A stretch of 62,833 bases of DNA from a virus. Taxonomy: Duplodnaviria > Caudoviricetes. Under the pieces are notes generated by a model. The model searched no databases. It saw only the letters and a program-made list of their open reading frames with translations, and had not been told where the DNA came from. The stretch is taken from IMG/VR virus record IMGVR_UViG_3300010413_000029, positions 1-62,833 of that record; one strand, written 5' to 3'. The position numbers were made by a program, and so were the translations under genes. Shown here one piece after another: positions 1 to 32,081 of the stretch (position 1 is its first letter; each line of letters opens with the position of its first letter).

Positions 1-144
1 TTATGAATCACCCAACTCAGAAATAGCATAAGCGGCAAATAATCCAAGCGCCAAGTTTTCACAACATTCAATGTTCTGTTTTATTTTTACCCACTTTCCA
101 TTTTCATCCTTTTTATACACTTTTTCAACTGCATCCCAAGCACG
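1..144. repeat. Terminal direct repeat, identical to 62690-62833 (circular assembly overlap)
   Basis: TTATGAATCACCC...CATCCCAAGCACG occurs identically at both ends and falls inside coding sequence. Confidence 0.95.
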
Positions 145-870
145 TTGAGCAGCCTCAGCATCAGACATCTTCTTGTCCTTGTATTCCTGATACACAGCCT
201 CATAGATTTTCTTGCCTTCCGCAGGGAGAGAGCCAGTCACGTTCTGCCAAAGCTCACCATTGACAACAACAAACTCTTGACTTGGATCAAATTCTTGGGA
301 AACTTCACTATTATTTCGATTCAAGCCACAGCCATCTCTAACACTACAAGCTCCCACTTCATCAGGCAACAAGGCAATGTGGTCAGGGTGAATGTTCTGG
401 TCTACATACTGGTAATTCTTATCATTCCATTTTCCCTCTTGTGGAACCGTTTCAGACCAATAGCCCGTAGACACTTCAATAGGGCGTTGGTTCTCAATCA
501 TACTCAGCAAGGCTAAGCCTTCCTGCGTGTTGGCAATGACATCTTTATCGAGCCAAAACTCACCAACAAGCCTCTTGGAATCCTGTTCGATCTTGGCATT
601 GTAGAACCTGCCAACCACAGGGACATCCGAGGAGGGGACACGTGCACTCCCTCCATTCTGTTTCGGGTGACGCAAGACCACAGGCACATCATTCCAGTCC
701 GCAGGGCTAGAAGCAAACTGCTCGAACGGCATAAAACGCCCGTTGAGAATAGTCTCCTTCAAGGGGACACCATTGACAACCAGCCAAGTCTTGCCACCCC
801 GCTCAACCTCGCGGAATGTACTCAATAAGTTGTTTCTAGCAAAGGAAAGGGTGTCTGTATCTGATAACAT
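1..870 (-). CDS. DUF2213-like prohead maturation protein with C-terminal ChaB-like domain
   Basis: Motifs VPVVLRHP, EVSTGY, PDHIALLPDEVGACSVRDGCG; C-terminal LPAEGKKIYEAVY...AAQRAWDAVEKVYKKDENGKWVK; lies upstream of scaffold and capsid genes across the circular junction. Confidence 0.75.
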   Translation of the reverse strand: MLSDTDTLSFARNNLLSTFREVERGGKTWLVVNGVPLKETILNGRFMPFEQFASSPADWNDVPVVLRHPKQNGGSARVPSSDVPVVGRFYNAKIEQDSKRLVGEFWLDKDVIANTQEGLALLSMIENQRPIEVSTGYWSETVPQEGKWNDKNYQYVDQNIHPDHIALLPDEVGACSVRDGCGLNRNNSEVSQEFDPSQEFVVVNGELWQNVTGSLPAEGKKIYEAVYQEYKDKKMSDAEAAQRAWDAVEKVYKKDENGKWVKIKQNIECCENLALGLFAAYAISELGDS

Positions 871-916
871 AAAGCGTTGGCTCCGAGTTTACGAAGTCAA
901 CGCTTCTGATGCTTAT

Positions 917-945
917 ATATTACGGGAAAATTACCTATATGTCAA
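917..945 (-). promoter_or_regulatory. Sigma70-type promoter for the head maturation gene
   Basis: TTGACA-17bp-TAATAT on the minus strand. Confidence 0.7.
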
Positions 946-970
946 GGTAGTGCCAAGGTACTAATACGGA

Positions 971-1095
971 TACTAACGGTTTGCATTACCCGCAAAGGGC
1001 GGGACTAGACAATGACGATTGACGGGGAATGCTTGCATAAGATTATTCTTTTTCAACGGCGTGATTCCCTTTGTCGGGTGAATCTTTTGTTAGGC
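971..1095 (-). mobile_element. attC: Integron attC site (cassette B)
   Basis: R'' GCCTAAC, 5 bp, L'' ATTCACCC ... L' GGGTAAT, 7 bp, R' GTTAGTA; arms ATT(C)ACCCG(A)CAAAGGG and CCCTTTGCGGGTAAT pair with two extrahelical bases. Confidence 0.8.
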
Positions 1096-1231
1096 AGATT
1101 TTACGCATTGGAAGAAGTGCATTATATGGATTGTTCAATCTTCTTCTTGCACACCTGGAACATAGCGGTTTATATTTGTCTGTCCCCAAGACTTTTTGTT
1201 CCCATATAGGATTTTTGATATTTCCTTTCAA
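1043..1231 (-). CDS. Small CxxC hypothetical protein (cassette B ORF)
   Basis: Only sizeable minus-strand ORF between the two attC sites; TTG start uncertain; stop lies within the attC. Confidence 0.35.
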   Translation of the reverse strand: MKGNIKNPIWEQKVLGTDKYKPLCSRCARRRLNNPYNALLPMRKICLTKDSPDKGNHAVEKE

Positions 1232-1238
1232 GCACCAA

Positions 1239-1384
1239 ACCCAACGGACACAGCGTTACCGGAAGTCGGAGTGACGGGCTGTGTCGGCGGTTGACTTCTA
1301 ACCATTCTCGATCTCGGTCGATGACCCGACTTCTTGGGCTGGTTCTGTCCCGTCACCGACTTTCCGGTGCACGCATTGTTCGGC
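1239..1384 (-). mobile_element. attC: Integron attC site (cassette A)
   Basis: R'' GCCGAAC, 5 bp, L'' GTGCACCG ... L' CGGTAAC, 9 bp, R' GTTGGGT; long imperfect palindrome ACCGG(A)AAGTCGGTGACGGG / CCCGTCA(CT)CCGACTTCCGGT. Confidence 0.75.
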
Positions 1385-1573
1385 GTCCCGTATTGCCTGT
1401 CTCAACTTCTCGATGCGAGCATCAATAGCACGCCACCCCATAGATTCATCTGGCTTGAATTTGAGAACAAGCTCAACATGACCATTAGAGACTGCTTCTC
1501 CAGCAATGTTATTCCAGTCCTTTATGGCCTCTATCTTGTTATAGTAATTATTTATTCGGGCAAAGTTACGCAT
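1298..1573 (-). CDS. Hypothetical protein (cassette A ORF)
   Basis: ATG 1573 preceded by GAAAGGAAAAAGG; ORF runs into its attC. Confidence 0.6.
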   Translation of the reverse strand: MRNFARINNYYNKIEAIKDWNNIAGEAVSNGHVELVLKFKPDESMGWRAIDARIEKLRQAIRDAEQCVHRKVGDGTEPAQEVGSSTEIENG

Positions 1574-1674
1574 CCTTTTTCCTTTCAAAGTAAGCCGCAC
1601 AATGTGTGGGGTCGCTGTGTCCGTTCGGTGGCACAAGCGGGTGCGCTCTTTGCGTCCAGCGCAGGGACGCCGAA

Positions 1675-1935
1675 CTATGATTTAACCAATCCTGTATATA
1701 CAGGATGCAATAGTCCTTCCGTTAAATACATTCTTACAGCTCGGCGCACAAGTTCATTTACCGAGATAATGCCACCTGTGCTTTGGCTGATCGCCTGAAG
1801 CGCTGCCAAGTATTCCGGTGAAATGCGAAATAAACGACGAATATAGCCCTTTGACTTTGGGCCAGTGGAAACAAAATAATACCGTTTCTTACCAGTTATA
1901 GTTTGATAAACAACTTTCTTAGACATAACTATCAA
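1675..1935 (-). CDS. Ribbon-helix-helix-like DNA-binding protein
   Basis: FRISPEYLAALQAIS...SVNELVRRAVRMYL resembles the Arc/CopG pattern. Confidence 0.55.
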   Translation of the reverse strand: MIVMSKKVVYQTITGKKRYYFVSTGPKSKGYIRRLFRISPEYLAALQAISQSTGGIISVNELVRRAVRMYLTEGLLHPVYTGLVKS

Positions 1936-2162
1936 TCACCATCGTGGTTATGTGCTTGTTTTTTTGTAACGTATTTTATATTATGATAACCACTTTCATC
2001 AGGAGAGAATTCGCCACACCATTGGTTGGAACCAACTTCTGGCCATACTGTCTGAGTACCATTTATACCCACTTCATTACTATAACGAGGAGCATAACGC
2101 CTACATTCTCCCCATATATTAATTTCGTGGAAAAAAATGCAATTTTTACAATTTGTATCCAT
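1932..2162 (-). CDS. Small Cys-rich hypothetical protein
   Basis: CKNC...ECRRYAP...WCGEF; AGGAGA RBS upstream of ATG 2162. Confidence 0.65.
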   Translation of the reverse strand: MDTNCKNCIFFHEINIWGECRRYAPRYSNEVGINGTQTVWPEVGSNQWCGEFSPDESGYHNIKYVTKKQAHNHDGD

Positions 2163-2186
2163 TTGTTTATTTATTCTCCTAATCTC

Positions 2187-2250
2187 TGGATGAAACAATA
2201 GAATTCTAACCTATAATCCCCCATATGTCAAGGAATTTACAGGATGAAAA
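2187..2250 (-). promoter_or_regulatory. Conserved phage promoter module
   Basis: TTTTCATCC box, TTGACA(2231-2226)-17-TAGAAT, leader TCATCCA, AGGAGA. Confidence 0.8.
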
Positions 2251-3354
2251 TCAACCTATAAATCCTTGACGCAACCAAGCACGAACCCTATCTAAGAACG
2301 ATTTCGGCCAGGGATAATCCACCGGATAATGCTTGTACGTCCAACCAATGTTAGGAGCACCCGGGGGAAGTTTCCACGGAGCGATGTACACGCGCCGATC
2401 ATCCATATCACCATGCAGGGCAGGGGTATCATAGCTTCCACGAATGAGCATCTGGTCAAGCAAATACCACTTTCCATCAACAAGGCCATAGACATCACTA
2501 CCACTGAGCCATAGTTTTTCAATCGTGACTTCCACGCCTTCGTTGGCATCAGGGGTGCGCCAGGCATTATCAACTACCAGACTATCTCGATACAACTTGG
2601 CAACAAATGGAGGCCTCGGGAAAAAAGCAATCTTATATTGTTCTATGCCAACCAAAGGAACCTCCGTATACTCAGGCACTTTATTTTTGACCACTACAGG
2701 GAATTGAACACGACCATTTCCACCCACAGCGCCACGATCATTGAGGATGTTGTAATCACGACTGGCAGTCGATGATACCAACACCTGAGTATGGAACAAG
2801 TGCGGGTCTTTGGTGGGATTGAGACTTTGGTCAACAGGCTTGTCATAATCCTGAGCCTGCACCAATGAGAACCGCTGTCCACCAGATACAATCGTATCCA
2901 ATTCACGTACTACATCACAACCCAAGAAAAGACAATACAAACGCGTGTCACCATGATCCATAAAGCCATAGCCGTCTCGCTGGAAACGAGCAAAGACTGT
3001 ATCGCCCATCAACTCACGCATCTTGGTTTCCCACCCTGTCCCAAGCACCTCTACCACAGGCTTGCCCTTACAACGATAGGCTCCATCCTTGTAATAAAGC
3101 TCATTGCCAGGTTGAATCATATTGGTGAACTGAATCTGAATCTCTTCCAGTTTGGTGCGAGATTCCCCGTAGAGGTAAGCATCATCCCAAATACGACCAA
3201 AGCGACCCACAGTATCAGGGCCATACTCTGTGCCTTCTGGTAGGATGTCTATGGGGTCAGGTATTCCACCACTAGGAGGGGGTGTTGTCTCAGGGACTAA
3301 TGTGGCATCACTGCCATCATCAAAGTGAACAACAAATTCAGTTGTCTCAGCCAT
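2251..3354 (-). CDS. Hypothetical protein co-transcribed with the endolysin
   Basis: 367-aa ORF 2 bp after the endolysin stop; N-terminal FDDGS/TTPPP motifs shared with the endolysin C-terminus. Confidence 0.7.
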   Translation of the reverse strand: MAETTEFVVHFDDGSDATLVPETTPPPSGGIPDPIDILPEGTEYGPDTVGRFGRIWDDAYLYGESRTKLEEIQIQFTNMIQPGNELYYKDGAYRCKGKPVVEVLGTGWETKMRELMGDTVFARFQRDGYGFMDHGDTRLYCLFLGCDVVRELDTIVSGGQRFSLVQAQDYDKPVDQSLNPTKDPHLFHTQVLVSSTASRDYNILNDRGAVGGNGRVQFPVVVKNKVPEYTEVPLVGIEQYKIAFFPRPPFVAKLYRDSLVVDNAWRTPDANEGVEVTIEKLWLSGSDVYGLVDGKWYLLDQMLIRGSYDTPALHGDMDDRRVYIAPWKLPPGAPNIGWTYKHYPVDYPWPKSFLDRVRAWLRQGFIG

Positions 3355-3356
3355 TG

Positions 3357-4997
3357 TTATGCCTTTGGTACCATTTCCTGTGTGCTTCCATCATCAAATT
3401 TTATGGTAGCACCAATGACCTGCTTGCCAGTGGTGGGTGGGGGAGTTGTATCGACTACTTCAAGGAAACGCGATTCTATGGCATTCACAGGCTTTACAGC
3501 GCCAGGCAGAGCGTCCTCCGTGAGAGTATAGTTCTTGTTGTTCTGTGTGGTCGTGCCAGCGGGGGGATAGGTCAATTCATAGCCAGCAGGGAGCGTTCCA
3601 TCAGCCCCCTTGACTACACCATCCACCACACGATTGAACGGCACAGGCGCACCAACATCAAATCTTACTAGAAGCACAGTAGGCATATTATTCTCCTTTT
3701 TATTTTTCAACCCAATATGCTGGGGAACTTTTTCACTTGGGCCATACGGCCAATAGAGCATAACGCCATTCTCTTGGATCTGTGCAGAATGACCACTATC
3801 CATCAAATAGGCATACGTTATTCCCAAACCTTTGACATATTCAGCAGCCTCCATCTGAGTCATGCCTTCACCATCCTCCAATCCACGCGTGACAATCAGA
3901 TAGATAAATTCAGCATCAAAGCCAAGCACACACCAGGGAGCCACATACACAGTGTCCAGGTTGAGATTGATCATCCCATCCGCAAGCATCCTGCGAGCAT
4001 AGTAAGCAGGATTGCCAGCATCATCCAGGATGGACTGGAATCCAGTGGTCTTCGGGATAGCATGGGTGGCATCCGTGTACTCAAAGCCAGCACCCCCATT
4101 CATGGCAGTCTCCCAATCATTCTGGTCAGAAGCCTCAACAGCATCCAAGAGAGGCATTTCACCACTGCCAGGGGTGATGTAAAAGCCATACTCAGAGCGA
4201 GGATGTTTGACGATATAGGCATCAGGCTCAGATGGTATCGAGCCTCCACCAATCCACGAAGTCAAGGCATTGACATCCCCATTGAACACATTCTGGTCAC
4301 ACCATCCACCTGTGCCATGCAAGTCAGGATCACCCGCCTCACTATACTGCCACAGCACCCAATCCCCCCGATTCTTGGGCATGGATGGATTCTTATCCGG
4401 ACTTGGAGAGTAGTAATACTGGGCAATCCACAATCCATCCCAAGGATACTTTGTGAAGATGTCCTCCCCAAACATCCTGATCGAGCCAGGATAGACCACA
4501 TTATCATAGGTCGAGGGGTTGGTATAGAACAGCAACTTGCAATTGGGCTTCCACAAATTGACAAAGCTCCCAAATTCCTGAGCAACAGCCACAAAGGCAT
4601 CATCCATCTGGTTATTGGTAGACTCAAAGTCACACACCAAAATGTCGATCTTCTTTGCACCAACCACATTGGTGAAATGGTCAGCCTGCGTTCTGGCGCT
4701 CATGCCACTACGTAGATAGTGATACGCGCCAATGATGGGAACTTTCCCAACAGAAGCCTGGTAGAAACTCGCAAACCTATCATCAATCCAGGTCGTGCCT
4801 TCCGTAGCCTTGAAGATAGCAAAGTCAACCAAATTGGGAGCAGCCTGGTTAGGATTGAACGTGTCTTCCCATGAAGATATATCAATCCCATAGGCCCTTC
4901 CAAGTCCGCCAATTACACTAGGTTTTGGCTCTGGTAAAACAAAACCAGTTTGAACAAGAAAGCGATTTATAAAAAATTTTCGATAGTTTCTTTTCAT
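3357..4997 (-). CDS. Endolysin: GH25 muramidase + phosphodiester glycosidase (NAGPA-like) domain + C-terminal domain
   Basis: GIDISSWE, FAIFKATEG, GAYHY, CDFE, LWIAQY, LWQYS, DQNVFNG (GH25); GMTQMEAAEYVKGLG..AYLMDSGHS resembles the NAGPA LDGGGS region; TGATAGAAT 6 nt before ATG suggests a leaderless start. Confidence 0.85.
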   Translation of the reverse strand: MKRNYRKFFINRFLVQTGFVLPEPKPSVIGGLGRAYGIDISSWEDTFNPNQAAPNLVDFAIFKATEGTTWIDDRFASFYQASVGKVPIIGAYHYLRSGMSARTQADHFTNVVGAKKIDILVCDFESTNNQMDDAFVAVAQEFGSFVNLWKPNCKLLFYTNPSTYDNVVYPGSIRMFGEDIFTKYPWDGLWIAQYYYSPSPDKNPSMPKNRGDWVLWQYSEAGDPDLHGTGGWCDQNVFNGDVNALTSWIGGGSIPSEPDAYIVKHPRSEYGFYITPGSGEMPLLDAVEASDQNDWETAMNGGAGFEYTDATHAIPKTTGFQSILDDAGNPAYYARRMLADGMINLNLDTVYVAPWCVLGFDAEFIYLIVTRGLEDGEGMTQMEAAEYVKGLGITYAYLMDSGHSAQIQENGVMLYWPYGPSEKVPQHIGLKNKKENNMPTVLLVRFDVGAPVPFNRVVDGVVKGADGTLPAGYELTYPPAGTTTQNNKNYTLTEDALPGAVKPVNAIESRFLEVVDTTPPPTTGKQVIGATIKFDDGSTQEMVPKA

Positions 4998-6982: not shown

Positions 6983-7831
6983 CTATTTCCTGAATTTGAA
7001 AGCACACAAACAAAATGAAAAACAGGAAGCATCCCCGATTTCCACAGCATTATCAATTGAAACCCAACCCTGCGCAGCCAATTCAATGCAACCAGGGCGA
7101 TTGTGACTATCATGACAATGATTCTCAGTGGGACCTAACATCCTCTTGGCTTCATTCATGCCATTCTCTTGGGCAACCCGAAGCAACTGGTTCTGGTAGA
7201 TGACATTGCCAGCCCTGCCATACATGCCAGCCCGGATGACAGCACGCCCATTCAATGGTTGTTTGCCAGAATAAATCTCATCCAAGAAGTTGTTCAGCCA
7301 ACGATAGTGAGGACGCATCCTCCAGCCAAACTTGGCAATCTCACTTTGGGTATAGTTGGCCTTGCCACCAATCGAAGCGAGATAGGCAGCACGATACTCA
7401 TTCTTCATCATGGTGCGCATGGTGTCATACCACTGTTGCCGACCGATCTCCCCATTGACAAGCCTGACAGTCAACTCACGCATCTGTTGTTCGGAATACT
7501 TGGAGAGCCGCAAGACTCCCAATCTCACGCGCGAGGCAGGCACACGATAGTTGGAACCCACATACCGCCATACCCCATTGACTGTATCAAAGTAGGTCTC
7601 CACAGGCTTATAGGCCTGCTGCTGTACTTCTGTCCGTAGCTTAGCATCCAGAATCCCAGGCACACCACTGACCAGATTCCATAGGTCAATCGAAGCCTGT
7701 AGGTCACTGGTATCTTCCAAGTAGGCCTGTATCTCATCTTCAGTGAGAGGGCGCACAAAGTCAGTGCTATCTCGATATGGTCTAGCAGGCAGCAACTTGG
7801 GGAGAGGGGGAACAGGATAGGGCAGGGTCAA
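6983..7831 (-). CDS. Head morphogenesis / minor capsid protein (MuF-like)
   Basis: Directly after the portal; C-terminal HC...GC.ELAAQGW..I...IG...C...CLC. Confidence 0.65.
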   Translation of the reverse strand: MTLPYPVPPLPKLLPARPYRDSTDFVRPLTEDEIQAYLEDTSDLQASIDLWNLVSGVPGILDAKLRTEVQQQAYKPVETYFDTVNGVWRYVGSNYRVPASRVRLGVLRLSKYSEQQMRELTVRLVNGEIGRQQWYDTMRTMMKNEYRAAYLASIGGKANYTQSEIAKFGWRMRPHYRWLNNFLDEIYSGKQPLNGRAVIRAGMYGRAGNVIYQNQLLRVAQENGMNEAKRMLGPTENHCHDSHNRPGCIELAAQGWVSIDNAVEIGDASCFSFCLCAFKFRK

Positions 7832-9954
7832 GGTACTAATTCCTCTCCAATTCCTTCATACTCCTCACCAAGAGCAAAGGCAATCCACTGACCACCAATC
7901 ACCAAATGCACATCCGAGAAATTCATCTCAAGCAATTGGCCAACGTCCACCTGAGTCTTGTCATCCTTTGGCAAATATGCCAATGTCATATGCGGGATGA
8001 AGCCATGCTCACGGTGATAGGGGATTCCATGCTGGTCCAGCGCATCCGTCAAGGATTGCCGAAAGGCTGGAAACTCAGGACTATCGAACAAGGCCACAAT
8101 CGGATCAGTGTCATTTTCGGAAACAAACCTGGCAACACCCTGCAACTTGGTCTTGATCGGTTTGGCATTCTCCGTGAAGTCAGCCAACGCATAGTCCACT
8201 CTTTTCATGTCCAAAGTACGGTAGTCACCCAGGTATGCTAGCGTGATGTGCAGGTCATCCTTGACATCATCAGACATGATCGGGTATTCCTTCTGCAATT
8301 CATCACGCAAGACATCAGGGATACGCAACGCAATCATGGCAGAGTTCTCGTTAGCTTTATGAAGCAAGATAGGGCCATACTGCGTATTCATGGTAACAGT
8401 GTAAGCATCAACATCATTCAAGCTATGACCTGGGGACAAAGCCTTCTTGATTTTGGCAGTATTGATGTGACTGTTCGCAGAAATAAGATTACTGGGAACT
8501 TTCCCAATATCTATCTTCTTTCCAGAAGGGTCTAAAAATTCACTATTGCCATTGCCATTGGGTGGGGGAGGTGGGGGTTGACTTAGCTTTTCTTGTATGG
8601 CAAGTAACTGGTCTGCTGGGATTTCATAATCAAGATACCGTTTCGCAAACTCGTCAAAAGGCATGATCATTTCAGGGGCATTTCCAGAGGCAGTATTAAT
8701 TGCCTGAGCATACTTGACAGCCAAGTCAGCATTTTCCAAATCAGTCAATTCAAACAAGGACGGCCAATGCACATTGTACTTCTCAGGGACATTCAAAATC
8801 CCCAATTCTCCCATACGTTTGATGAAGGGTCTCAGAATGTACGGCTCTGCAAAGTTCTTGCGTCTCCAATCAATGTAGTCCATGAAGTTGGCATCATCCT
8901 GAGAGCTTGCCAGATTGCCACGTTCCGAGCCAAGCAGGATGCGCTGGGGGATACGTTCACTCCCTGCAATGTACGCAACGATGACATCAAATTGCTCACG
9001 GCTATCTACTGGCTTTCCACCCAACTCCTGAATGTCCAATCCTTGCGCACGCACTACCCGACGAAGGTTGTGCTCCCACTCATCCCACTCCTCCTGCATG
9101 GCCTTGTATTCATTGGAGTCAACCTTGGGCATCGTAAAGCCTTCCACCGCCTTGAGTACCACGCCCTGATAGATTAGTTTCCAGAATGCTTCACTTCCAC
9201 CACCAACCACTTTCTCCAAATCATATAAGCGATTCAAGACCTTCTTGAGTCTTGGCACGCCATAGATGCGACCCAATCCCATCTTGCCAATGCCAGCCCG
9301 TTCCCGCCCTTCTTTCACATGGATGACACGCGAATAGTGTACAGCCAAGTCAGCACTTTCATTCTCATCAATTGAAACATAATAGCGAGTCGGCAATCCA
9401 AAGCGCGGGTTTTGCTTATCTGAAACCAACGACAATTCATCCACCCTGGCATTGCCCTCATCATGGGTGGTCACATACAGGATGTTATTGGATTTTCCAG
9501 ACACTTTTGTTTCTGGTTCCCCAGGCAATCCCAAGTACATCAATGCAAAACGAGAGATTCCACAGGAGCGGTCTACCTCATTGAACTGTGCCCACAGGTC
9601 TAGCCTGTCCACCAAATCTTCAAAGTCCTTCTGCAATTGGGTTGGCTCATCCAATTCATCAGCAGACTTCTGTCCTTCATCCAGTAAAATTGGGTGCTTG
9701 CGCCAAGTCTCGTCACTGACTGTATCAACAACGCGCGTACCCAATCCATCGCGCTCATAGATGTTCAAGTAATCCTGGAACTGCGGGGTTTTTGTGTACC
9801 CAAGAACAGAGTACAAATCACGTTCTCCCCCAAAGGATTGGCCTAGTGCACTGGCAAGGCCGGAGCGAGAGACAAGCGCAGAGTTCAATTTGATCTGGTT
9901 TTCCAGATGGTCAATCAACTCTGATTTCAACATTTTAGAATACGGTTTTTCCAT
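7828..9954 (-). CDS. Portal protein (DUF1073-like) fused to a C-terminal 2H phosphoesterase (Acb1 / 2'-5' RNA ligase-like)
   Basis: Follows terL; PRFGLP..Y, VHYSRVIH, IPQRILLGSERGNLASSQD; two HxT motifs LHITLAYLG and FIPHMTLAY after a poly-Pro linker; start inferred at MEKPY. Confidence 0.85.
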   Translation of the reverse strand: MEKPYSKMLKSELIDHLENQIKLNSALVSRSGLASALGQSFGGERDLYSVLGYTKTPQFQDYLNIYERDGLGTRVVDTVSDETWRKHPILLDEGQKSADELDEPTQLQKDFEDLVDRLDLWAQFNEVDRSCGISRFALMYLGLPGEPETKVSGKSNNILYVTTHDEGNARVDELSLVSDKQNPRFGLPTRYYVSIDENESADLAVHYSRVIHVKEGRERAGIGKMGLGRIYGVPRLKKVLNRLYDLEKVVGGGSEAFWKLIYQGVVLKAVEGFTMPKVDSNEYKAMQEEWDEWEHNLRRVVRAQGLDIQELGGKPVDSREQFDVIVAYIAGSERIPQRILLGSERGNLASSQDDANFMDYIDWRRKNFAEPYILRPFIKRMGELGILNVPEKYNVHWPSLFELTDLENADLAVKYAQAINTASGNAPEMIMPFDEFAKRYLDYEIPADQLLAIQEKLSQPPPPPPNGNGNSEFLDPSGKKIDIGKVPSNLISANSHINTAKIKKALSPGHSLNDVDAYTVTMNTQYGPILLHKANENSAMIALRIPDVLRDELQKEYPIMSDDVKDDLHITLAYLGDYRTLDMKRVDYALADFTENAKPIKTKLQGVARFVSENDTDPIVALFDSPEFPAFRQSLTDALDQHGIPYHREHGFIPHMTLAYLPKDDKTQVDVGQLLEMNFSDVHLVIGGQWIAFALGEEYEGIGEELVP

Positions 9955-9956
9955 GA

Positions 9957-11243
9957 TCACCTTCCAAACGTGCCTGCTGTATGGCTTCCACTCAATTCGG
10001 TGTATGCCCATACTTTAGCATCTAATCTATTGGGACTGGGGTCTCCAGGAACCCACATGCAAAGTTCATCTTCTAGTATTGGAAAAACGCCAACATGATG
10101 ATCACGCCCCTTTTCTGCAATAGCCGAAATAGGTTCTGCTCTAGTAGCTTTTCCACGGGAAGCCCATACAAGTTTCACTGGCACATTTCCAATAGTAGGA
10201 TCTTTTTGTCTAGCATTGATTATTGCTTGCTTTATGACTGATTGTACCATTTCTCCACCATTGTTTTTTTCAGCAACAATACAATCTGCCTTGTATCTAT
10301 GATAAGCGGTTATTGCAGCTTGTGCCCACTGTTCAGGACTTCCGTGCAAACTATCATCAGCCATTGTATAATAATCCTCATTTATTTTTCCTGCGGTGAT
10401 AATTCCTGCCTCATCACCACTGCTAGATGCAGTAGGGTCTACAGCAACAACAACCCGTGACAACTTTGGCGGAACTTTTACAACTCTGCAATCTTCTATT
10501 CCCCATAATATCTCATCGTTGACAAGAATGTTTCTACGCCTCCACAACGCACCCGGAGCTTCATCAATATCTTCTGCTTCGATTTCTTGTCTAATTGCCA
10601 AGGCCGTCATATCCATTGTAATATCGGACAAGGCAACCTTACTAATATAAGGATTATCGTGACTAGTAAAATGGAAGGCAGCCCATCTTCCGGTTTTGTC
10701 CTTTTTTGCCTTTTTCCACAGTTTTGCTGCATGTTGAGGGTCTCTTGCTTTGCTCACGCTGCGAGAATGTAGAGATGGGGGAGTATAAATAAATATGGCA
10801 TCTCCGTTATTATCTAATAACATCGGTGCACCAACTTCACTCCATGCTGTTTCGTCCATCAATTGAAATTCATCTAAAATAAGTACATCCGCATAATCAC
10901 CGCGCAAGGTATCAGCATTCCAGGCAGTCTTTGCTCGTATTCGCTGTTCTGTTCCACGTAATTCAATAATATGCCTAGTCTCGTTCTTGTAATATGCCCC
11001 CGCTTCTATTGGCTCATAAAGCGCTTTGAGTGTTTCCGTCCAAAATCTGTCAATCTGGTCTTGCGTAGGAGCAGCATAAAGCACCCTTCGGCCCTCTAAG
11101 AACTTTTCAAGACCTAAAATTGCCATTCCTACTGTCTTTCCCCCACGTCTGCCAGCACGAACAATTTTTCGTTTTGCTGAATGGTCAATAAATTGACGCT
11201 GTTTTTCATGGGGATTCGGAATCGTTACTGTTATGGTCTGCAT
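9957..11243 (-). CDS. terL: Terminase large subunit
   Basis: PHEKQ, Walker A AGRRGGKT, LRG, Walker B ILDE, nuclease motifs VAVDP, AEKNNGG, SPNRLDA. Confidence 0.95.
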   Translation of the reverse strand: MQTITVTIPNPHEKQRQFIDHSAKRKIVRAGRRGGKTVGMAILGLEKFLEGRRVLYAAPTQDQIDRFWTETLKALYEPIEAGAYYKNETRHIIELRGTEQRIRAKTAWNADTLRGDYADVLILDEFQLMDETAWSEVGAPMLLDNNGDAIFIYTPPSLHSRSVSKARDPQHAAKLWKKAKKDKTGRWAAFHFTSHDNPYISKVALSDITMDMTALAIRQEIEAEDIDEAPGALWRRRNILVNDEILWGIEDCRVVKVPPKLSRVVVAVDPTASSSGDEAGIITAGKINEDYYTMADDSLHGSPEQWAQAAITAYHRYKADCIVAEKNNGGEMVQSVIKQAIINARQKDPTIGNVPVKLVWASRGKATRAEPISAIAEKGRDHHVGVFPILEDELCMWVPGDPSPNRLDAKVWAYTELSGSHTAGTFGR

Positions 11244-27824: not shown

Positions 27825-28058
27825 TTAACCTTTATCAAATAATGGTTCGTAGTTTTCACCAGTAAGTTCTGGCAATTCATCCAGATATGTTCCCCATCGT
27901 GGCATAGTTTTTACCCCTTTCATCGCATCGTAACATCCTGGGCACAGTCTATATCCTTTGTTCCAATTCTCAATCGAAATCATCCACTGACAATTAGAGC
28001 AAAGACGACCTTCTTCTTTGGCTCTATGATATTGTCGTGCCATGATTTTGTTCATCAC
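27825..28058 (-). CDS. Small Zn-finger hypothetical protein
   Basis: CSNC...CPGC; AGGAGG RBS. Confidence 0.6.
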   Translation of the reverse strand: MMNKIMARQYHRAKEEGRLCSNCQWMISIENWNKGYRLCPGCYDAMKGVKTMPRWGTYLDELPELTGENYEPLFDKG

Positions 28059-28064
28059 AACCTC

Positions 28065-29555
28065 CTACGGTAATCTACTCGCATGGCTCGGCCTTTGCGC
28101 ATTGGGAGCATACGGTTTATCGGTGAACCATTGTGCAACCAAGTCATAATCCCACAGGGTGGGGGTGAAACGATTGCCATCTCTGTCTTTCATAATCCAG
28201 ATGCTAATCTTGAGATTCTTCGCACCAACCAACTGCTGGTTGACTTCCGGCATCAAGACTAACATCACATCCGTAACATGCTTGATCTGCCTTGCCCACG
28301 GAATGGCATTCAAATCTGGCAATTGATTCTTCTGCCCATTGCCATTCATGGCCTTCTGGTTTCGCTTGAAGAACTCAGCAGACTCATCCGGTGAAATGGC
28401 ATGCACCACTCCACAGGCACAATCATATTTGTTCGCAATAGATTTCAACATCGTGAAGTTGTGCAACATATTGACGGTCTTGTTCTGTCCCCCATCTTCC
28501 TCAACCTGATTGATCTGATCTACCACGAATAAGGCAGGGCGATGCAAACGAACTGCTCTCTCGATCTCACGCAGGTTGGTAGCCCGCGAGTTAAACTTGA
28601 GTCTGCCACCATACTTTCCCTGGTATTCATTTACAATAGCATCCCGCAAATCTTGCTGCTCCTGCGGTGTAAGCTTTCCACTTCTAACCTTTTTCCCATT
28701 CACATGGGCAAGTCCAGCAACTCGCCGTAGGACATTCTGCTTATTGGTGGACTCAAGCCCAAAATAGAGTGCCTTCTTTCCAGCCAACGCAACCTGCTCA
28801 CATACTTGCAACCACCATGCGCTCTTTCCAAATGAACTATCCCCGATCATGAGCGTGGCACCAATGGGCAACCCACCCAAAGCATCGGTGTGGTCAAATT
28901 CTGGAAAGCCAGTCATAATTCCAGTCGGATTGTTATTGTCAATATCGATCAATAGATCAACACTGGCCTCGTCGCTATCCTCTGTGTCATCATCCTGAGA
29001 GTAGTTGACATCCTCCCTTACAACCAACTTGTCATACTTTGAAAGGGTGGTCTCAATATCACAACTTTCATCATAACCCAACGCAGCTATTTCATTGGCC
29101 TTAGCAATCAGTTTTCTCCTGACAGAATGAGCCTCAATAATTCTGCCATAAGAGAGAATGCTTGCTACATCCAAGGTCGGAATCCCAGTTGCAACCGTAA
29201 TCAAGGCTGTCAGGTAAGCAGGACCACCAATATCAGCCAATTGACCTAATCCATCCAACACATCACTGATAGTCATAATGTCAACTACCCTGCTAAAGTC
29301 CAAACAAGTCTGCATCGCCTCCCAAATCCAGCGATGCCGATGGATGTAGAAGTCATCAGCTTTCAAGAACTCAGCCACATCGGGGTAAAACTGCGGATAG
29401 ATCAAGAGGGCGCCCAAAAGTAACTCCTCCGCCTCCCGTGAATGCGGAATACTCAGAAAGGTAGGAGGCTCCTCAGGTTGGTCAATCTCTGGAAGGATGA
29501 AATCATCAAAAGGGTCATCAAGTGGCGCTGGGGGTGGCAGGTTCGGTGCAGTCAT
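28065..29555 (-). CDS. dnaB: DnaB-like replicative helicase
   Basis: PHSREAEE.LLGALLI, DDFYIHRHRWIWE, TGI.TGF..FD...LGGL, Walker A GDSSFGKS, KDRDG. Confidence 0.85.
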   Translation of the reverse strand: MTAPNLPPPAPLDDPFDDFILPEIDQPEEPPTFLSIPHSREAEELLLGALLIYPQFYPDVAEFLKADDFYIHRHRWIWEAMQTCLDFSRVVDIMTISDVLDGLGQLADIGGPAYLTALITVATGIPTLDVASILSYGRIIEAHSVRRKLIAKANEIAALGYDESCDIETTLSKYDKLVVREDVNYSQDDDTEDSDEASVDLLIDIDNNNPTGIMTGFPEFDHTDALGGLPIGATLMIGDSSFGKSAWWLQVCEQVALAGKKALYFGLESTNKQNVLRRVAGLAHVNGKKVRSGKLTPQEQQDLRDAIVNEYQGKYGGRLKFNSRATNLREIERAVRLHRPALFVVDQINQVEEDGGQNKTVNMLHNFTMLKSIANKYDCACGVVHAISPDESAEFFKRNQKAMNGNGQKNQLPDLNAIPWARQIKHVTDVMLVLMPEVNQQLVGAKNLKISIWIMKDRDGNRFTPTLWDYDLVAQWFTDKPYAPNAQRPSHASRLP

Positions 29556-29564
29556 TCAGTTCTC

Positions 29565-30479
29565 CTAGGTAGTTATATTGCCAAAATCAAAGGGGGCAAA
29601 GCCAGTCTCAGGGTCGATCTCAACAGGGACATTATTGGGATTGTTCGCAGGAAAGGCTTCAGGATAGGCCTCGATCATTTTGTTCGGGTTCCAGAACTTC
29701 ATCGAGAAATTGTCATCCTCAAACAGGTAGCGCATGAACACATGCAAGTGTCTTCCCTTCGTCTGTTCCTGCTCATCCACAAAACGATAAAAGCTCTCCC
29801 ACTTATTGAAGCTCACCCGAGTATCCAAAATAGCACAAAACAACTCATGGATTTCCTCAAGCCTAGTAGACTTCTTTACCCCGGGTTGCATTCGCAAAGC
29901 ATTCATCCACCCTTCAATGGGATCTCCACGCTTGTCTTCACTTTCTACAATGCGTTGTCTATCTTGTTCTAAAGTTTTTGAAAAATCGTCCTGCTCTACT
30001 TTTTCTTTATTCTTTTCTTTATTCTTTGCTTCATGTGGTGAGTAACCTCCTTCACCTGATGATGTACCTCCTTCATGTGGTGAAGGCTTCATGTCATGAA
30101 GGGTCTTTTTGAACTCTATTCTAGACTTGATAGATAGATGACTTTCAGCCCATTCAATATTCTTACCCCATAAATCAGGAATAGATAAATGCCAAACAGG
30201 TTGGGGATATCCAGGGTCTTTTCTAACTTCCCCTTCAAGAAAGCCAAGTGAAATCCAATAGTTACGACAATCCACTACTTTTCCAATGGACATGCCACTC
30301 AAAGCAGCTAAATCTTCCGTTGATAAAAAGCATTCACTAGAATCACCTGCTACCTCTTTTATCGTATCCCATAAAGAGTAATCATAAGGTGTCCTACTAT
30401 AATATTTCACAATGCGAGGGTTGATCGTGAAATATTTTGCATCACGACTTTTATCTCTTATTTTGTTTTGATCACTCAT
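29565..30479 (-). CDS. Phage replication initiator protein
   Basis: N-terminal wHTH-like region (CFLSTEDLAALSGMS), internal repeats, immediately upstream of DnaB. Confidence 0.7.
   Translation of the reverse strand: MSDQNKIRDKSRDAKYFTINPRIVKYYSRTPYDYSLWDTIKEVAGDSSECFLSTEDLAALSGMSIGKVVDCRNYWISLGFLEGEVRKDPGYPQPVWHLSIPDLWGKNIEWAESHLSIKSRIEFKKTLHDMKPSPHEGGTSSGEGGYSPHEAKNKEKNKEKVEQDDFSKTLEQDRQRIVESEDKRGDPIEGWMNALRMQPGVKKSTRLEEIHELFCAILDTRVSFNKWESFYRFVDEQEQTKGRHLHVFMRYLFEDDNFSMKFWNPNKMIEAYPEAFPANNPNNVPVEIDPETGFAPFDFGNITT
29995..30102. repeat. Putative replication origin (iterons plus AT-rich tract)
   Basis: CTTCA-N4-TGA units at 30029, 30050, 30071 and 30087, next to a pyrimidine/AT-rich tract inside the initiator gene. 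Confidence 0.6.
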
Positions 30480-30841
30480 GATGCACCTTTTTTAGAATTG
30501 CATTTCTTACATAATGTTTGAAGATTGGATAATTCTAAAGTCCCACCTTTTACCTCTGGATAAATATGATCTACAGTCAAGTTTTTTCTTTTTCCACAAT
30601 GTCGACAAGTGAAATTATCTCGCTCCCATACTTCCCACCTAATTTTTGCAGGTATAATTTCTTTCTTGTAAGATGATTTTTCTTTTGGCCTATTTTGTTC
30701 ATCTTGATATTCTTGATATGCTTCCTGTAAATCTTTTTTCAATATTTCAACAAAATTGGGCCTAGCATCAATATCCTCAAGGCAGAAAATTGCATCACCA
30801 AGTCGTCTAACCCTATTATGTAGAGTTTCTAATAATTCCAT
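30476..30841 (-). CDS. HNH endonuclease
   Basis: VWERDNFTCRHCG...LTVDHIYP..KGG....NLQTLCKKCNSKK. Confidence 0.9.
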   Translation of the reverse strand: MELLETLHNRVRRLGDAIFCLEDIDARPNFVEILKKDLQEAYQEYQDEQNRPKEKSSYKKEIIPAKIRWEVWERDNFTCRHCGKRKNLTVDHIYPEVKGGTLELSNLQTLCKKCNSKKGAS

Positions 30842-31055
30842 AACAAACTCCTAACCCAGATACAAAAATCCCTTTCAAACTTTGATAACGGCTCAGGCAA
30901 CACAGGCTTTGATTACATCGGTGGCTTCCGATAGAACCTAAGCCGTTATCAAAATCCAAAAAGGATTGATATTTTGCCCGTGTTTTGCGCTTTTGTTTAG
31001 CGGTAGCCAGCCGCGCGCCTAAACATATTCTAAAGGATGTTCACGATTCTGTCAA
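30842..31055 (-). ncRNA. Promoter plus c4/CI-like structured leader RNA
   Basis: TTGACA-17-TAGAAT; hairpin loop CUGGCUA complementary to loop AAGCCA; AACACGGGC complementary to GCCUGUGUU; long closing stem UUUUGAUAACGGCU/AGCCGUUAUCAAAG; U-tract; AGGAG. Confidence 0.65.
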
Positions 31056-31181
31056 ATGGGATTTCAAAAAATCAATCACCAATTTTCCATCAACAATGGC
31101 ACACTCATAATCATTATTTGGTAAGTATCCCTTGACAACAAGTAGAACATGTGATAACATGTAGTTGTTAGGAGATACACG

Positions 31182-32081
31182 ATGACCACAAAGACCCGCA
31201 AACAACCCAAAAGCCCGATGCAGAAATTCACGCTCAAAGACTTTCAACAGATGTTCCCTGATGACGATACCTGTCTGGATTACATCATGAGCCAGAAATA
31301 CCCTGAGAGAATCGATTGCCCTCAGTGTGGACGCAATAGCATTTTCCATCGTGTGACTGGTCGCAAATCCTATGCCTGTGATGGGTGCGGGTATCACATT
31401 GCTCCTACCGCTAATACCGTATTCCATAAGTCAAGCACCTCCCTGACCATTTGGTTCTATGTCATTTACTTGATGGCACAAACGCGCGGCGGTATTTCTG
31501 CAAAGCAAATCCAGCGCGAGACGGGCGTTACTTATAAGACAGCCTGGAGAATGTGCAAGGAAGTACGCGAAGTTCTTTTTGAAGATCACGACCCAATGAG
31601 CGGCGATGTAGAAATGGATGAAAGCTATTTTGGTGGCAAGTCTCACGGCAAGCGCGGGCGTGGTGCTGAGAATAAAACCGCAGTATTTGGAATGGTAGAG
31701 CGAAACGGGAAGCTCGAAGCGCGAGTAGTTCCCAATTGCCAGCGCAAGACCCTTTTCCCGATTGTGACGGATAATGTTGAACAGGGTACACAAGTTTACA
31801 CGGATGAATTCAACGTTTATCAGACCTTGCCCGCGATGGGATACAAACACGGGACGGTTCCACACGCTGAAAAGGTTTATGTTGTAGGCAATGCTCATGT
31901 CAATACAATCGAGGGTTTCTGGTCACAGTGCAAGAATGGTATTCGCGGCGTTTATCATTCGGTGAGTGCAACCTACTTACAACACTACTTGGATGAGTAC
32001 GCATTCCGCTATAACCATCGCAATGATGTTACTCCGATGTTCCTGACTTTTCTTTCGCGGGCGATTTCTCAATCTTCTTAG
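31182..32081 (+). CDS. IS1595-family DDE transposase
   Basis: Zn ribbon CPQC/CDGC, GISAKQIQRETGVTYKTAWRM, VEMDESY, YTDE, NTIEGFWS, YLDEYAFRYN. Confidence 0.95.
   Translation: MTTKTRKQPKSPMQKFTLKDFQQMFPDDDTCLDYIMSQKYPERIDCPQCGRNSIFHRVTGRKSYACDGCGYHIAPTANTVFHKSSTSLTIWFYVIYLMAQTRGGISAKQIQRETGVTYKTAWRMCKEVREVLFEDHDPMSGDVEMDESYFGGKSHGKRGRGAENKTAVFGMVERNGKLEARVVPNCQRKTLFPIVTDNVEQGTQVYTDEFNVYQTLPAMGYKHGTVPHAEKVYVVGNAHVNTIEGFWSQCKNGIRGVYHSVSATYLQHYLDEYAFRYNHRNDVTPMFLTFLSRAISQSS

Follow-up and report, generated by a model that had tools for sequence, protein, structure and literature searches.

Two attC-type sites in a tailed-phage genome

Integron cassettes are usually seen as bacterial cargo, carried by plasmids and transposons. 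What, then, are two cassette-like units doing in a phage, and how might they have come there? An earlier note on the DNA studied here (the window; a complete 62.8-kb tailed-phage genome, IMG/VR record IMGVR_UViG_3300010413_000029, Caudoviricetes) had claimed that two minus-strand ORFs are each followed by an imperfect palindrome with attC anatomy. On re-reading the sequence, all the palindrome elements named there are present where they had been placed, and each site does lie behind an ORF on the same strand; both ORFs are conserved.

The two sites are on the minus strand, 144 nt apart. attC_B (971-1095) has R'' at 1095-1089, L'' at 1083-1076, L' at 991-985 and R' at 977-971; its left part reads R'' GCCTAAC, spacer AAAAG and L'' ATTCACCC, and its right part L' GGGTAAT, spacer GCAAACC and R' GTTAGTA. 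attC_A (1239-1384) has R'' at 1384-1378, L'' at 1372-1365, L' at 1261-1255 and R' at 1245-1239; here the left part reads R'' GCCGAAC, spacer AATGC and L'' GTGCACCG, followed by a variable hairpin between L'' and L', and the right part consists of L' CGGTAAC, a 9-nt spacer and R' GTTGGGT. Complementary R'' and R' cores thus stand at both ends of each site. The published core consensus is RYYYAAC for R'' and GTTRRRY for R' (PMC5027507); attC_A has a G at the fourth position of R'' and a fitting R', and attC_B has a fitting R'' and two departures in its R' (GTTAGTA). Each site also shows the L'' and L' boxes and a spacer left unpaired, and in each the AAC arm bears extrahelical bases. In attC_B these are C1080 (position 16) and A1074 (position 22), the extrahelical C and A already proposed; attC_A has C1369 at position 16, an A at 22-24 and one extra bulge on the other arm. 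The boxes stand as first described, while in attC_A the L'-R' spacer needs correcting to 9 nt, from 6-7, and one bulge lies in each arm. The bottom strand of attC_A is predicted to fold at -32.5 kcal/mol (z -3.4), its R region preferring a shifted pairing both alone and in the present array context.

The aadA1 attC (class 1 integron In2, R100) has the same R''-5 nt-L'' ... L'-spacer-R' layout and the same AAC/GTT core, and the letters are also alike (AACAATTCGTTCAAGCCGAC in aadA1 and AACAATGCGTGCACCCGAC in the phage attC family). As described in PMC5027507, attC_aadA7 has extrahelical G16 and T23 on its bottom strand; the phage sites share with the aadA1 and aadA7 sites a bulged C (bottom G) at 16 and a bulged A (bottom T) at 22/23. 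Unlike the aadA1 attC, which measures 60 nt, the phage sites span 92-146 nt, have a G-A mismatch in the L box and an L'-R' spacer of 7-9 nt rather than 6, and have no integrase or attI1 nearby, unlike aadA1 in In2.

General searches added little: Rfam gave only two chance snoRNA-like matches in 1-4000 at E<=10, both outside the feature, and blastn of 900-1700 against phage and plasmid collections gave no match.

Covariance models and the wider attC family

An attC covariance search had been suggested as a check, and we ran it with two models of our own. R1 was built from 8 phage or metagenome sites, both window sites included; R2 was built from 16 bacterial intI-adjacent sites plus the aadA1 attC of plasmid R100, with no phage sequence. 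Since R1, which includes the window sites, served to choose the R2 training sites, neither model is wholly independent of the other. R2 scored attC_B at 40.8 bits (E 1e-07) and attC_A at 33.4 bits (E 8e-06), and in a 90-kb search at E<=10 (the window plus L002, L007, L008 and L010) its only matches in the window were 971-1095 and 1239-1384. The R1 scores were 77.1 bits for attC_B and 69.7 bits for attC_A, with no third site found by R1 in the window. R1 also matched the aadA1 attC of R100 exactly and on the correct strand (27.6 bits), and elsewhere in 50 kb of R100 gave one weak match (11.7 bits, E 0.63) and none that was significant. In a bacterial test set of 20 loci (intI +/-8 kb), it found 19 matches, spread over 10 loci, and every one of them lay on the strand of the cassettes and to the array side of intI. 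Both window sites are thus recognised by two reciprocal models, bearing out the claim that the palindromes are of attC type.

The family alignment points the same way. RNAalifold on 8 family sites gave 22 consensus pairs, and in 10 of these both bases vary in a way that preserves the pairing, so that the structure is conserved around a variable centre; the centres themselves are unalignable and the sites differ in length (92-146 nt). All 8 sites keep their AAC and GTT cores unchanged, and the aligned family has its bulged C at 16 and bulged A at 22 on the AAC arm, matching the G16 and T23 published for attC_aadA7 (PMC5027507). In sequence and in predicted structure, the two sites of the window are attC sites.

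This family is widespread in viral contigs. It gave 264 matches in 64/66 viral loci (IMG/VR) examined, in arrays that reach 11 sites at a single locus, and the sites form same-strand arrays behind unrelated ORFs. Exact words were less productive: the exact 20-mer of attC_A turned up in no attC setting in a search of 185,579 species genomes, and so pointed to no host integron, and a 21-mer of the hairpin arm had no match in viral contigs. A search with the 20-mer ACGCCGAACAATGCGTGCAC matched 13 stretches, nine of which (L003-L006, L009, L011-L014) we dropped as chance identity in a conserved membrane-protein-like coding region.

Anatomy of the two cassettes

Cassette A (1245-1674, minus strand) runs from TT 1674-1673 to G 1245 and consists of a 100-nt leader, ORF A and attC_A. 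Its first 12 nt from the junction G (GTTCGGCGTCCC, 1675-1664) had been said to complement its own R'' flank (GGGACGCCGAAC, 1389-1378) exactly, and they do, at 12/12 positions; the same pair appears among the inverted repeats as I2 (16 nt, 94% complementary). Nor is this confined to one cassette. In the window and phage G003 taken together, 6/8 cassettes have a start that complements their own R'' flank at 10-12 of 12 positions, and the adjacent R' in those cassettes matches at only 6-9. The cassette ends therefore bear the signature to be expected of circular cassettes joined at G|TT, and cassette A has the form of a promoterless, circularisable cassette.

ORF A (1298-1573, minus strand; 91 aa, ATG at 1573) has its last ~30 codons encoded by attC_A. 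Its homologues P0002-P0004 are 68-87% identical, and P0005 and P0006 have in common with it only the attC-encoded tail; the same attC_A-encoded tail is thus common to two proteins with unrelated N-termini. No family match for ORF A was found in Pfam or PHROG, nor any match in the protein atlas or, with the ORF A alignments as query, in genome and metagenome contigs, and a single-protein/alignment search of viral contigs found no relatives of P0006.

The leader holds a conserved module (1623-1675, minus strand; GTTCGG..CTGCGCT..AAAGA..GCTTGTGCCACCGAAC), three homologues of which occur in the unrelated phage G003, each beginning x|TTCGG. Cassette A also has an inverted mini-attC (1594-1629, plus strand), a centrally deleted copy of the attC_A ends (GCCGCACAATGTGTG-GGGT-CGCTGTGTCCGTTCGGT) that corresponds to inverted repeats I1 and I3. 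In the predicted fold of the whole cassette (z -4.9), this element pairs with both ends of attC_A, and it is retained beside different inserts in contigs of runs X2, X4 and X6. Neither R1 nor R2 scored it as an attC. We also considered 1592-1685 as a short attC in either orientation; it had no R1 or R2 score and no fitting R''/R' pair, and was rejected.

Cassette B (977-1244, minus strand; TT 1244-1243 to G 977) consists of ORF B and attC_B. ORF B (1043-1231, minus strand; 62 aa, TTG start) belongs to a family of zinc-ribbon-like small proteins with the motif ..WEQ..LCxxCAxRRLNNPYNALLxMRKI, its tail being encoded by attC_B. It represents a real gene family but is truncated at its 5' end and has lost the first CxxC motif, and its homology to P0007 and P0008 extends upstream across the G|TT junction. 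The start of cassette B matches its own R'' flank at 6/12 positions, which together with the truncated ORF indicates a damaged cassette. It may have been trimmed later, or captured already trimmed, at a GTT within its own gene. No relatives of ORF B were found in viral contigs by single-protein/alignment search; run X2 has pieces of attC_B (973-1009 and 1022-1093) in different surroundings.

Close relatives with other cassettes

The earlier note had proposed looking for related phages with different cassettes at this place. We compared metagenome contigs of runs X2, X3, X4 and X6 with the window and found them. Run X4 contains a phage 95-99% identical to the window in the flanking genes, with 128 other nt in place of ORF A. 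After the attC_A GTT, it continues into the start of a methylase cassette, 30/30 nt identical to the first cassette of viral locus L071; the same methylase cassette is found at different array positions in different phages, and DNA methylase cassettes are frequent in related arrays. Going by these contigs, close relatives of the window phage carry other cassettes at the same place.

Where the likeness breaks off is informative. Differences bounded by the G/TT points had been predicted, and the likeness of independent contigs to the window ends at 1674, 1243 and 973, against an expected 1674, 1243 and 975; two of the stops are exact and the third is displaced. Further contig breakpoints lie off G|TT, at 1390-1394, 1592-1593, 1366 and 991. 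These fit homologous exchange in conserved attC or leader sequence better than a site-specific crossover.

The array within the phage genome

The array lies between an RHH (ribbon-helix-helix) gene (1675-1935, minus strand; Pfam RHH_1 and RHH_3) and a head-protease gene (1-870, minus strand; DUF2213/head-maturation-protease-like, with a ChaB domain). As claimed, the last letter of the RHH gene's stop codon, TAG, marks the array's start; this G is also the G of the first G|TT junction. The 3' end of the RHH gene has the palindrome CCTGTATATACAGG, then TTGGTTAAATCATAG|TT. RHH homologues also stand directly before arrays in L081, L093 and L071, each array starting at the stop codon, which with the window makes four. 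We asked if an RHH gene precedes every array and rejected this; a four-protein profile gave no further copy in the six-frame ORFs of 81 viral loci (L071-L151), L069, L070, L007, L010 and the window. At least 5 viral contigs have the motif TAAAWCATAG|TT where their arrays begin, a recurrence that hints at an attI-like landing site and not a random attG.

A promoter-like site (2203-2231, minus strand; TTGACA, 17 nt, TAGAAT; 11/12 consensus positions) lies upstream of an 88-aa gene, the RHH gene and the cassettes, and may drive the cassettes, although it is known as a consensus match only. Another (917-945, minus strand; TTGACA, 17 nt, TAATAT; 10/12 consensus positions) belongs to the next phage gene and marks the end of the inserted stretch. 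Between the array start and that site (minus strand, 1675-946) there was no promoter-like match, and in 800-2400 no terminator-like site, including no T-run terminator.

The phage had been described as lacking an integron integrase, and the searches agree: the window has no match to the integron integrase model (TIGR02249), nor to other tyrosine recombinases (PF00589) or resolvase-type serine recombinases (PF00239). It has two close same-strand attC sites with no intI in the replicon, where at least two are needed for an attC cluster lacking an integron integrase (CALIN), and its two-cassette array is therefore a CALIN; it is not a complete integron, which would have intI, attI and a cassette promoter. 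The rest of the genome gives few links to other viruses. Single-protein/alignment searches found no relatives of the neighbouring proteins in viral contigs, tblastx of the window against phage G003 gave 0 matches, and of 10 window proteins compared with the viral loci only the RHH protein and the endolysin matched.

Integrases of the right kind do occur on viral contigs. Of 50 viral records carrying this attC family, five encode an IntI above the family cut-off, and three viral contigs (G307, G327 and G348) have complete integrons with the same attC family. In G307, one of the five, intI shares the record with just one set of head and tail genes of a phage; in G327, intI and the array lie between two phage head-gene sets on opposite strands.

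How the cassettes may have been acquired

We consider it highly probable that 977-1674 is a two-cassette CALIN whose sites were recombined by an integron integrase supplied in trans. Its substrates would have been the bottom strand of each attC, in folded form, and the GTT at the RHH stop codon; cassette B would have been inserted first and cassette A second. GWT-type insertion would account for both TCATAG|TT at the RHH stop and the cut in ORF B. The empty site would read TCATAG|TTAGTATCC, and a circular cassette A would join the end of attC_A (..CCG) to TTCGGCGTCCC; neither an empty site nor a circular-cassette read was seen. Also weighing against this reading are the departures of both sites from the core consensus, the 9-nt spacer and the wrongly placed bulge of attC_A, the breakpoints off G|TT and the 20-mer result in the species genomes. 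Having no promoters of their own, the cassettes would be expressed by read-through of transcripts begun at the phage promoter (2231-2203). As to where the integrase came from, the host chromosome and a different phage or prophage are both candidates; some phage contigs with the same attC family do encode one. The interpretation in the earlier note largely stands, and a host IntI may have made the insertions, as it proposed.

A rather unlikely alternative is that the sites are attC by descent and now serve mainly as conserved linkers, homologous or relaxed recombination reshuffling the array through attC and leader sequences shared among co-infecting phages and host arrays, with no IntI acting on phage DNA. 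The breakpoints off G|TT lie at the edges of conserved sequence, the same attC stands behind different ORFs with even its variable centre retained, and unrelated phages (0 tblastx matches) share 21 identical nt of a site; the PeSL motifs of T4-type phages (PMC2839356) offer an analogy. Homologous exchange would not lead us to expect that 6/8 cassette starts match their own R'' flank, as G|TT circle joining does, and it sits poorly with contig likeness that ends exactly at 1674 and 1243 and with a methylase cassette attached directly after the attC_A GTT.

It seems improbable that the exchange worked at a larger scale, with the circular phage genome captured whole by a host integron as a giant cassette (attC x attI or attC x attC) and this serving as a route to lysogeny. 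In formal terms any circular genome that bears an attC is a cassette; the window lacks an integrase, and the position of intI and array in G327 could be read in this way. G327 may also result from chimeric assembly or consist of two ordinary prophages; a prophage copy with attC sites on either side did not turn up, and cassette-sized turnover is sufficient for the data. Still less likely, and close to refuted, is that the palindromes are phage regulatory hairpins (for termination or RNA stability), or a REP or IS200/IS605-type element, that resemble attC. In favour, they are placed at the ends of genes, cassette A as a whole has a strong single-strand fold, and no Rfam family matches; against this, the covariance models pick up genuine attC sites in cross-searches, always on the expected side and strand, no terminator with a T-run was found, and the sites form same-strand arrays behind unrelated ORFs. 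We rejected a MITE or IS200-type element because this stretch of the window has no transposase and the models are specific to attC.

Relation to known systems

The earlier note held that attC arrays are mainly described from chromosomes and plasmids. This is outdated, since CALINs in virulent phages, about twenty isolates, were published in 2023 (Qi et al. 2023, PMC9892861); the kind of locus is thus already known. The examples given there include Tetrasphaera phage TJE1 and Pseudoalteromonas phage PH101, and IntI1 was shown to recombine 5/6 phage attC sites (Qi et al. 2023, PMC9892861). Like the TJE1 and PH101 CALINs as described there, the window has same-strand attC sites behind small ORFs and no intI, and DNA methylase cassettes are a frequent feature of the arrays related to it. 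Compared with the phages in that account (Qi et al. 2023), the attC family of the window extends over dozens of environmental viral contigs, a near-identical phage carries other cassettes, and four arrays begin at an RHH stop codon. What is new is the 95-99% identical phage with other cassettes and a junction at G|TT, found in metagenome contigs, together with an attC family present in 64/66 viral loci, an integrase in 5/50 records and four array starts at RHH stops.

Two other systems bear comparison. IntI-catalysed insertion of cassettes at genomic attG sites, with formation of SALINs and CALINs, has been reported (Loot et al., bioRxiv 10.1101/2022.09.11.507474). The window resembles that system in its minimal GWT-type site outside an integron and differs from what is described there in that the target is phage DNA and the start site is not arbitrary (bioRxiv 10.1101/2022.09.11.507474). 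The PeSLs of T4-type phages are promoter-terminator units shuffled by homologous recombination (PMC2839356, PMC4122927); there too, conserved intergenic hairpins flank small variable ORFs exchanged between related phages. Unlike PeSLs as defined in those papers (PMC2839356, PMC4122927), the window sites have no promoter-like match and belong to an integron attC family, and we found no promoter- or terminator-like match in 971-1675 on the minus strand.

A phage-centred integron network?

A wider reading, which we put forward tentatively as one possibility, is that the window belongs to a phage-centred integron network with an attC family common to dozens of unrelated phages. Some temperate members would carry the integrase, with the array, attI and intI encoded on the same strand (G307, G348), and integrase-less members would retain an attI-like TAAAWCATAG|TT where a conserved RHH gene has its stop codon. 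Trade in cassettes, notably those for orphan DNA methylases and for other probable anti-defence functions, would take place whenever IntI is present in an infected cell. The leader and the inverted mini-attC of cassette A could be a second device, by which the ORF is swapped while the attC stays.

The window itself is a clean case of a phage attC cluster in a complete genome. One attC family in many phages, cassette differences between close relatives and a mobile methylase cassette together suggest that this is no rare accident. If the exchange is driven by integrase, phages would have a site-specific, modular means of swapping small accessory and anti-restriction genes, and integron cassettes would gain a viral route between hosts.

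Two attC sites in a phage genome

The 62,833-nt window has direct terminal repeats and is a complete virus record; its gene products include a large terminase, a portal protein, a DnaB-like helicase, a GH25 endolysin and a DUF2213/ChaB head-protease-like protein. Its attC array lies on the minus strand, flanked by an 86-aa ribbon-helix-helix (RHH) gene (1675-1935) and the head-protease-like gene (1-870). We re-read the sequence at site B (971-1095; GCCTAAC-AAAAG-ATT[C]ACCCG[A]CAAAGGG ... CCCTTTGCGGGTAAT-GCAAACC-GTTAGTA) and site A (1239-1384; GCCGAAC-AATGC-GTG[C]ACCGG ... CCGGTAAC-GCTGTGTCC-GTTGGGT), both on the minus strand, and all the boxes that the earlier note had described for them are present. 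The two cassettes carry ORF A (1298-1573, minus strand; 91 aa, homologues 68-87% identical) and ORF B (1043-1231, minus strand; a small zinc-ribbon-like family). The phage had also been said to lack an integron integrase (IntI), and indeed the 62.8-kb window has no match to TIGR02249, nor to other tyrosine recombinases (PF00589) or resolvase-type serine recombinases (PF00239).

Promoter-like sites lie upstream of the RHH gene (2231-2203, minus strand) and of the head-protease-like gene (945-917, minus strand), with no terminator-like site between these two genes. Common to both is the extended sequence CTTGACATATRGG, which may be a promoter consensus of the phage itself. A 154-aa open frame at 1334-1798 (plus strand), antisense to site A, ORF A, the leader and the 3' end of the RHH gene, is probably spurious because ORF A has conserved homologues on the opposite strand. 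Elsewhere, the C-terminal ~150 aa of the 727-aa portal protein (7828-10011, minus strand) match PHROG families carrying the annotations RNA ligase and head maturation protease, an unusual fusion.

A family of sites recognised by reciprocal models

Relatives of site A were sought in three collections with an exact 20-mer from R''-L'', which matched 13 stretches. Nine were dropped as chance identity within a conserved coding region; this membrane-protein-like region (L003-L006, L009, L011-L014), in which the 20-mer ACGCCGAACAATGCGTGCAC occurs by chance, is carried by Lysobacterales, Gammaproteobacteria and Pirellulales MAGs and several metagenome contigs. The remaining matches were to viral contig G003 (38,245 nt, direct terminal repeats) and two short metagenome contigs. 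G003 has no tblastx match to the window and no IntI was found in it, but two arrays in it hold six sites of this family between them, one array lying directly after the portal gene. Alignment of eight clear sites gives the consensus GCCNAAC-AANGC-GTG[C]ACCCG[A]C ... GCGGGTAACGC-AARCC-GTTRGGY, for which RNAalifold predicts 22 pairs, and 10 of these show compensatory changes. On the AAC-bearing arm, C at position 16 and A at 22 or 23 are unpaired; in attC_aadA7, the published extrahelical bases G16 and T23 of the bottom strand lie on the same arm (PMC5027507). A 2-kb metagenome contig (L010) has R''-L''-like starts (GCCCAACACAGCG.. and GCTAACAAAGCGTGCACCCG..) at 1075-1165 and 1905-2050, behind DinB-like and GNAT-like ORFs; neither scores with the models described below, and both are possibly degenerate attC sites.

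We built a covariance model, R1, from the eight phage and metagenome sites. On 50 kb of plasmid R100 its sole significant match was the aadA1 attC, with the right ends and strand (27.6 bits); one further match was weak (11.7 bits, E 0.63). For a bacterial test set we took 20 loci of intI ±8 kb from sampled genomes, 111 of 301 of which had IntI above the family cut-off (a tally that takes in three unpublished genomes, which contributed none of the loci). R1 gave 19 matches at E≤1, from 10 of the 20 loci; all 19 fell on the side of intI that holds the array and on the strand of the cassettes, none on the other side or strand. Sixteen of these bacterial sites plus the aadA1 attC, without phage sequence, made up the second model, R2. 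Searched with R2 at E≤10, the 62.8-kb window gave exactly 971-1095 (40.8 bits) and 1239-1384 (33.4 bits), both on the minus strand. The attC-model check proposed in the earlier note thus picks out both sites alone, with models of our own that are reciprocal, the training rows of R2 having been selected by R1; E-values of both models are rough, from a quick calibration.

Degenerate patterns for the two halves of the family were matched to IMG/VR, giving 61 stretches for the 5' half and 27 for the 3' half. Across 66 new viral loci (571 kb), R2 found 264 sites at E≤0.001, with at least one site in 64 loci, at least two in 54 and 11 in one locus; since the loci were chosen by family patterns, these counts are not a prevalence estimate. 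By our reading of the R2 table, the sites within each locus are all on one strand.

Signature of joining

A first clue that the palindrome of site A is a mobile DNA unit came from two proteins, P0005 and P0006, with unrelated N-termini: all they have in common is the C-terminal tail RDAEQCVHRKVGDG..TEIENG, which site A encodes. Within arrays, the R' adjoining an attC is part of the next cassette, and therefore a cassette's own R' sits at its own start. As had been claimed, cassette A opens, from the junction G onward, with 12 nt (GTTCGGCGTCCC, 1675-1664) that are perfectly complementary to GGGACGCCGAAC (1389-1378) at its own R'' end. Among the eight cassettes of the window and G003, own starts match the complement of the own R'' flank at 10-12 of 12 positions in six, while the adjacent R' matches the R'' flank at only 6-9 of 12, with perfect runs of 3-5. 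This match of own start and own R'' is, judged from sequence, a signature of site-specific joining.

Of the two exceptions, cassette 4 of G003 has an extra conserved module at its start, and cassette B starts inside its own gene. The in-frame bases just after G|TT at 1245/1244, ..WVWCLKGNIKNPIWEQ, align with ..CTWCLKNKLKNPEWEQ of the homologue P0007, so ORF B is without its first CxxC motif and N-terminus. Such an end would be expected if recombination had used a secondary GTT within the gene.

Array starts and integrases

The array was said to begin at the G of the RHH gene's TAG stop, and it does (..CATAG|TT). Stop codons of homologous RHH genes are also the array starts in viral loci L081 (..CCATAG|TT), L093 (..CCTAG|TT) and L071 (..CAATAG|TT), and in G003 no more than roughly the last 11 codons of such a gene survive, directly behind the portal gene. 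Searching the retrieved loci with a profile of the four RHH proteins gave no further copy. The motif TAAAWCATAG|TT, also the array start in L094, L104 and L129, is similar to the attI1 junction of R100, CTAAAACAAAG|TT. This suggests a preferred landing site resembling attI, and not just any GTT. A preprint describes how IntI can drive insertion at minimal GWT sites in genomes (bioRxiv 10.1101/2022.09.11.507474).

IntI scored above the family cut-off in five of the 50 viral records with this attC family that were searched (396-408 bits), with one just below; six of the 50 have direct terminal repeats, none of these with intI. In G327 and G348, intI is followed on its own strand by the array, which starts 14-17 nt past the intI stop codon at GATAAGGATAG|TTAG, whereas the 10 bacterial loci with R1 matches show the usual divergent layout. 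Head genes of G327 form two sets, on opposite strands, around the integron; this contig may be chimeric, or a stretch of chromosome in which an integron has a prophage on either side. Between its differing head-gene sets (L144-L146), 27860-31659 holds intI and a same-strand array of nine attC sites (R2, E≤0.01). G307 (L149-L151), a 41.5-kb phage contig, has a single set of head and tail genes, a large serine integrase and intI, and its array spans the contig ends; a phage-encoded IntI for the window's attC family is therefore likely. About 130 nt of the G307 contig end, following the attI junction, are repeated at the contig start, following an attC end, so the same cassette seems to occupy two array positions in the population.

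Cassette turnover

We compared window positions 700-2000 with Logan contigs of four other metagenomes (soil, wetland, sediment and mangrove). One contig of run X4 matched 1243-1392 (1 difference in 150) and 1592-1833 (8 in 242), with 128 other letters where the window has ORF A; a second matched 700-991 (14 in 292) and then departs. X4 therefore holds a phage 95-99% identical in flanking genes with other content at the locus, in line with the earlier note's suggestion to look for different cassettes in related phages. Likeness ends at 1243 (runs X2 and X4), 1674 (one X6 contig) and 973 (X2), where G|TT junctions, with TT common to all cassettes, predict 1243, 1674 and 975; other ends (1390-1394, 1592-1593, 1366 and 991) are not at G|TT.

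After the attC_A GTT of the X4 relative, 30 of 30 letters equal the start of the first cassette of L071, which codes for an N6_N4 DNA methylase. This cassette directly follows the RHH gene in L071 and stands second, behind attC_A, in the X4 phage, suggesting cassette exchange between phages. N6_N4 methylase genes are recurrent cassettes (L008 8142-8954; L071 2553-3389; L147 1773-2636 and 804-1715), making up 4 of 12 Pfam-scanned ORFs in or beside phage arrays, and an anti-restriction role fits.

The 100-nt leader of cassette A has two odd features. A conserved module (1675-1623, minus strand) recurs three times in the unrelated phage G003, always from x|TTCGG. An inverted-repeat search also revealed an inverted copy of both attC_A ends with the centre deleted (1594-1629, plus strand), which neither R1 nor R2 scores as attC. 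Folded as a single strand, the whole cassette is predicted to form a three-way junction in which the copy pairs with both attC_A ends (-80.7 kcal/mol, z -4.9; 0 of 100 shuffles as good). The copy and the attC_A start are kept around at least four other inserts (128, 133, 212 and ~274 nt) in X2, X4 and X6 contigs. Possible readings of the copy are a remnant of an inverted site left by slippage, an element acting at the RNA level, or an ORF-swapping device.

The window's feature belongs to a known kind, the phage attC cluster. A 2023 report describes such clusters in temperate and virulent phages, with methylase cassettes and with sites recombined by IntI1 (PMC9892861). A limited literature search found no other paper on integrons in viral metagenomes. 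The additions worth following are an attC family common to many phage contigs, the cassette turnover seen here, the array start linked to an RHH gene and the cassette A leader that contains an inverted mini-attC.
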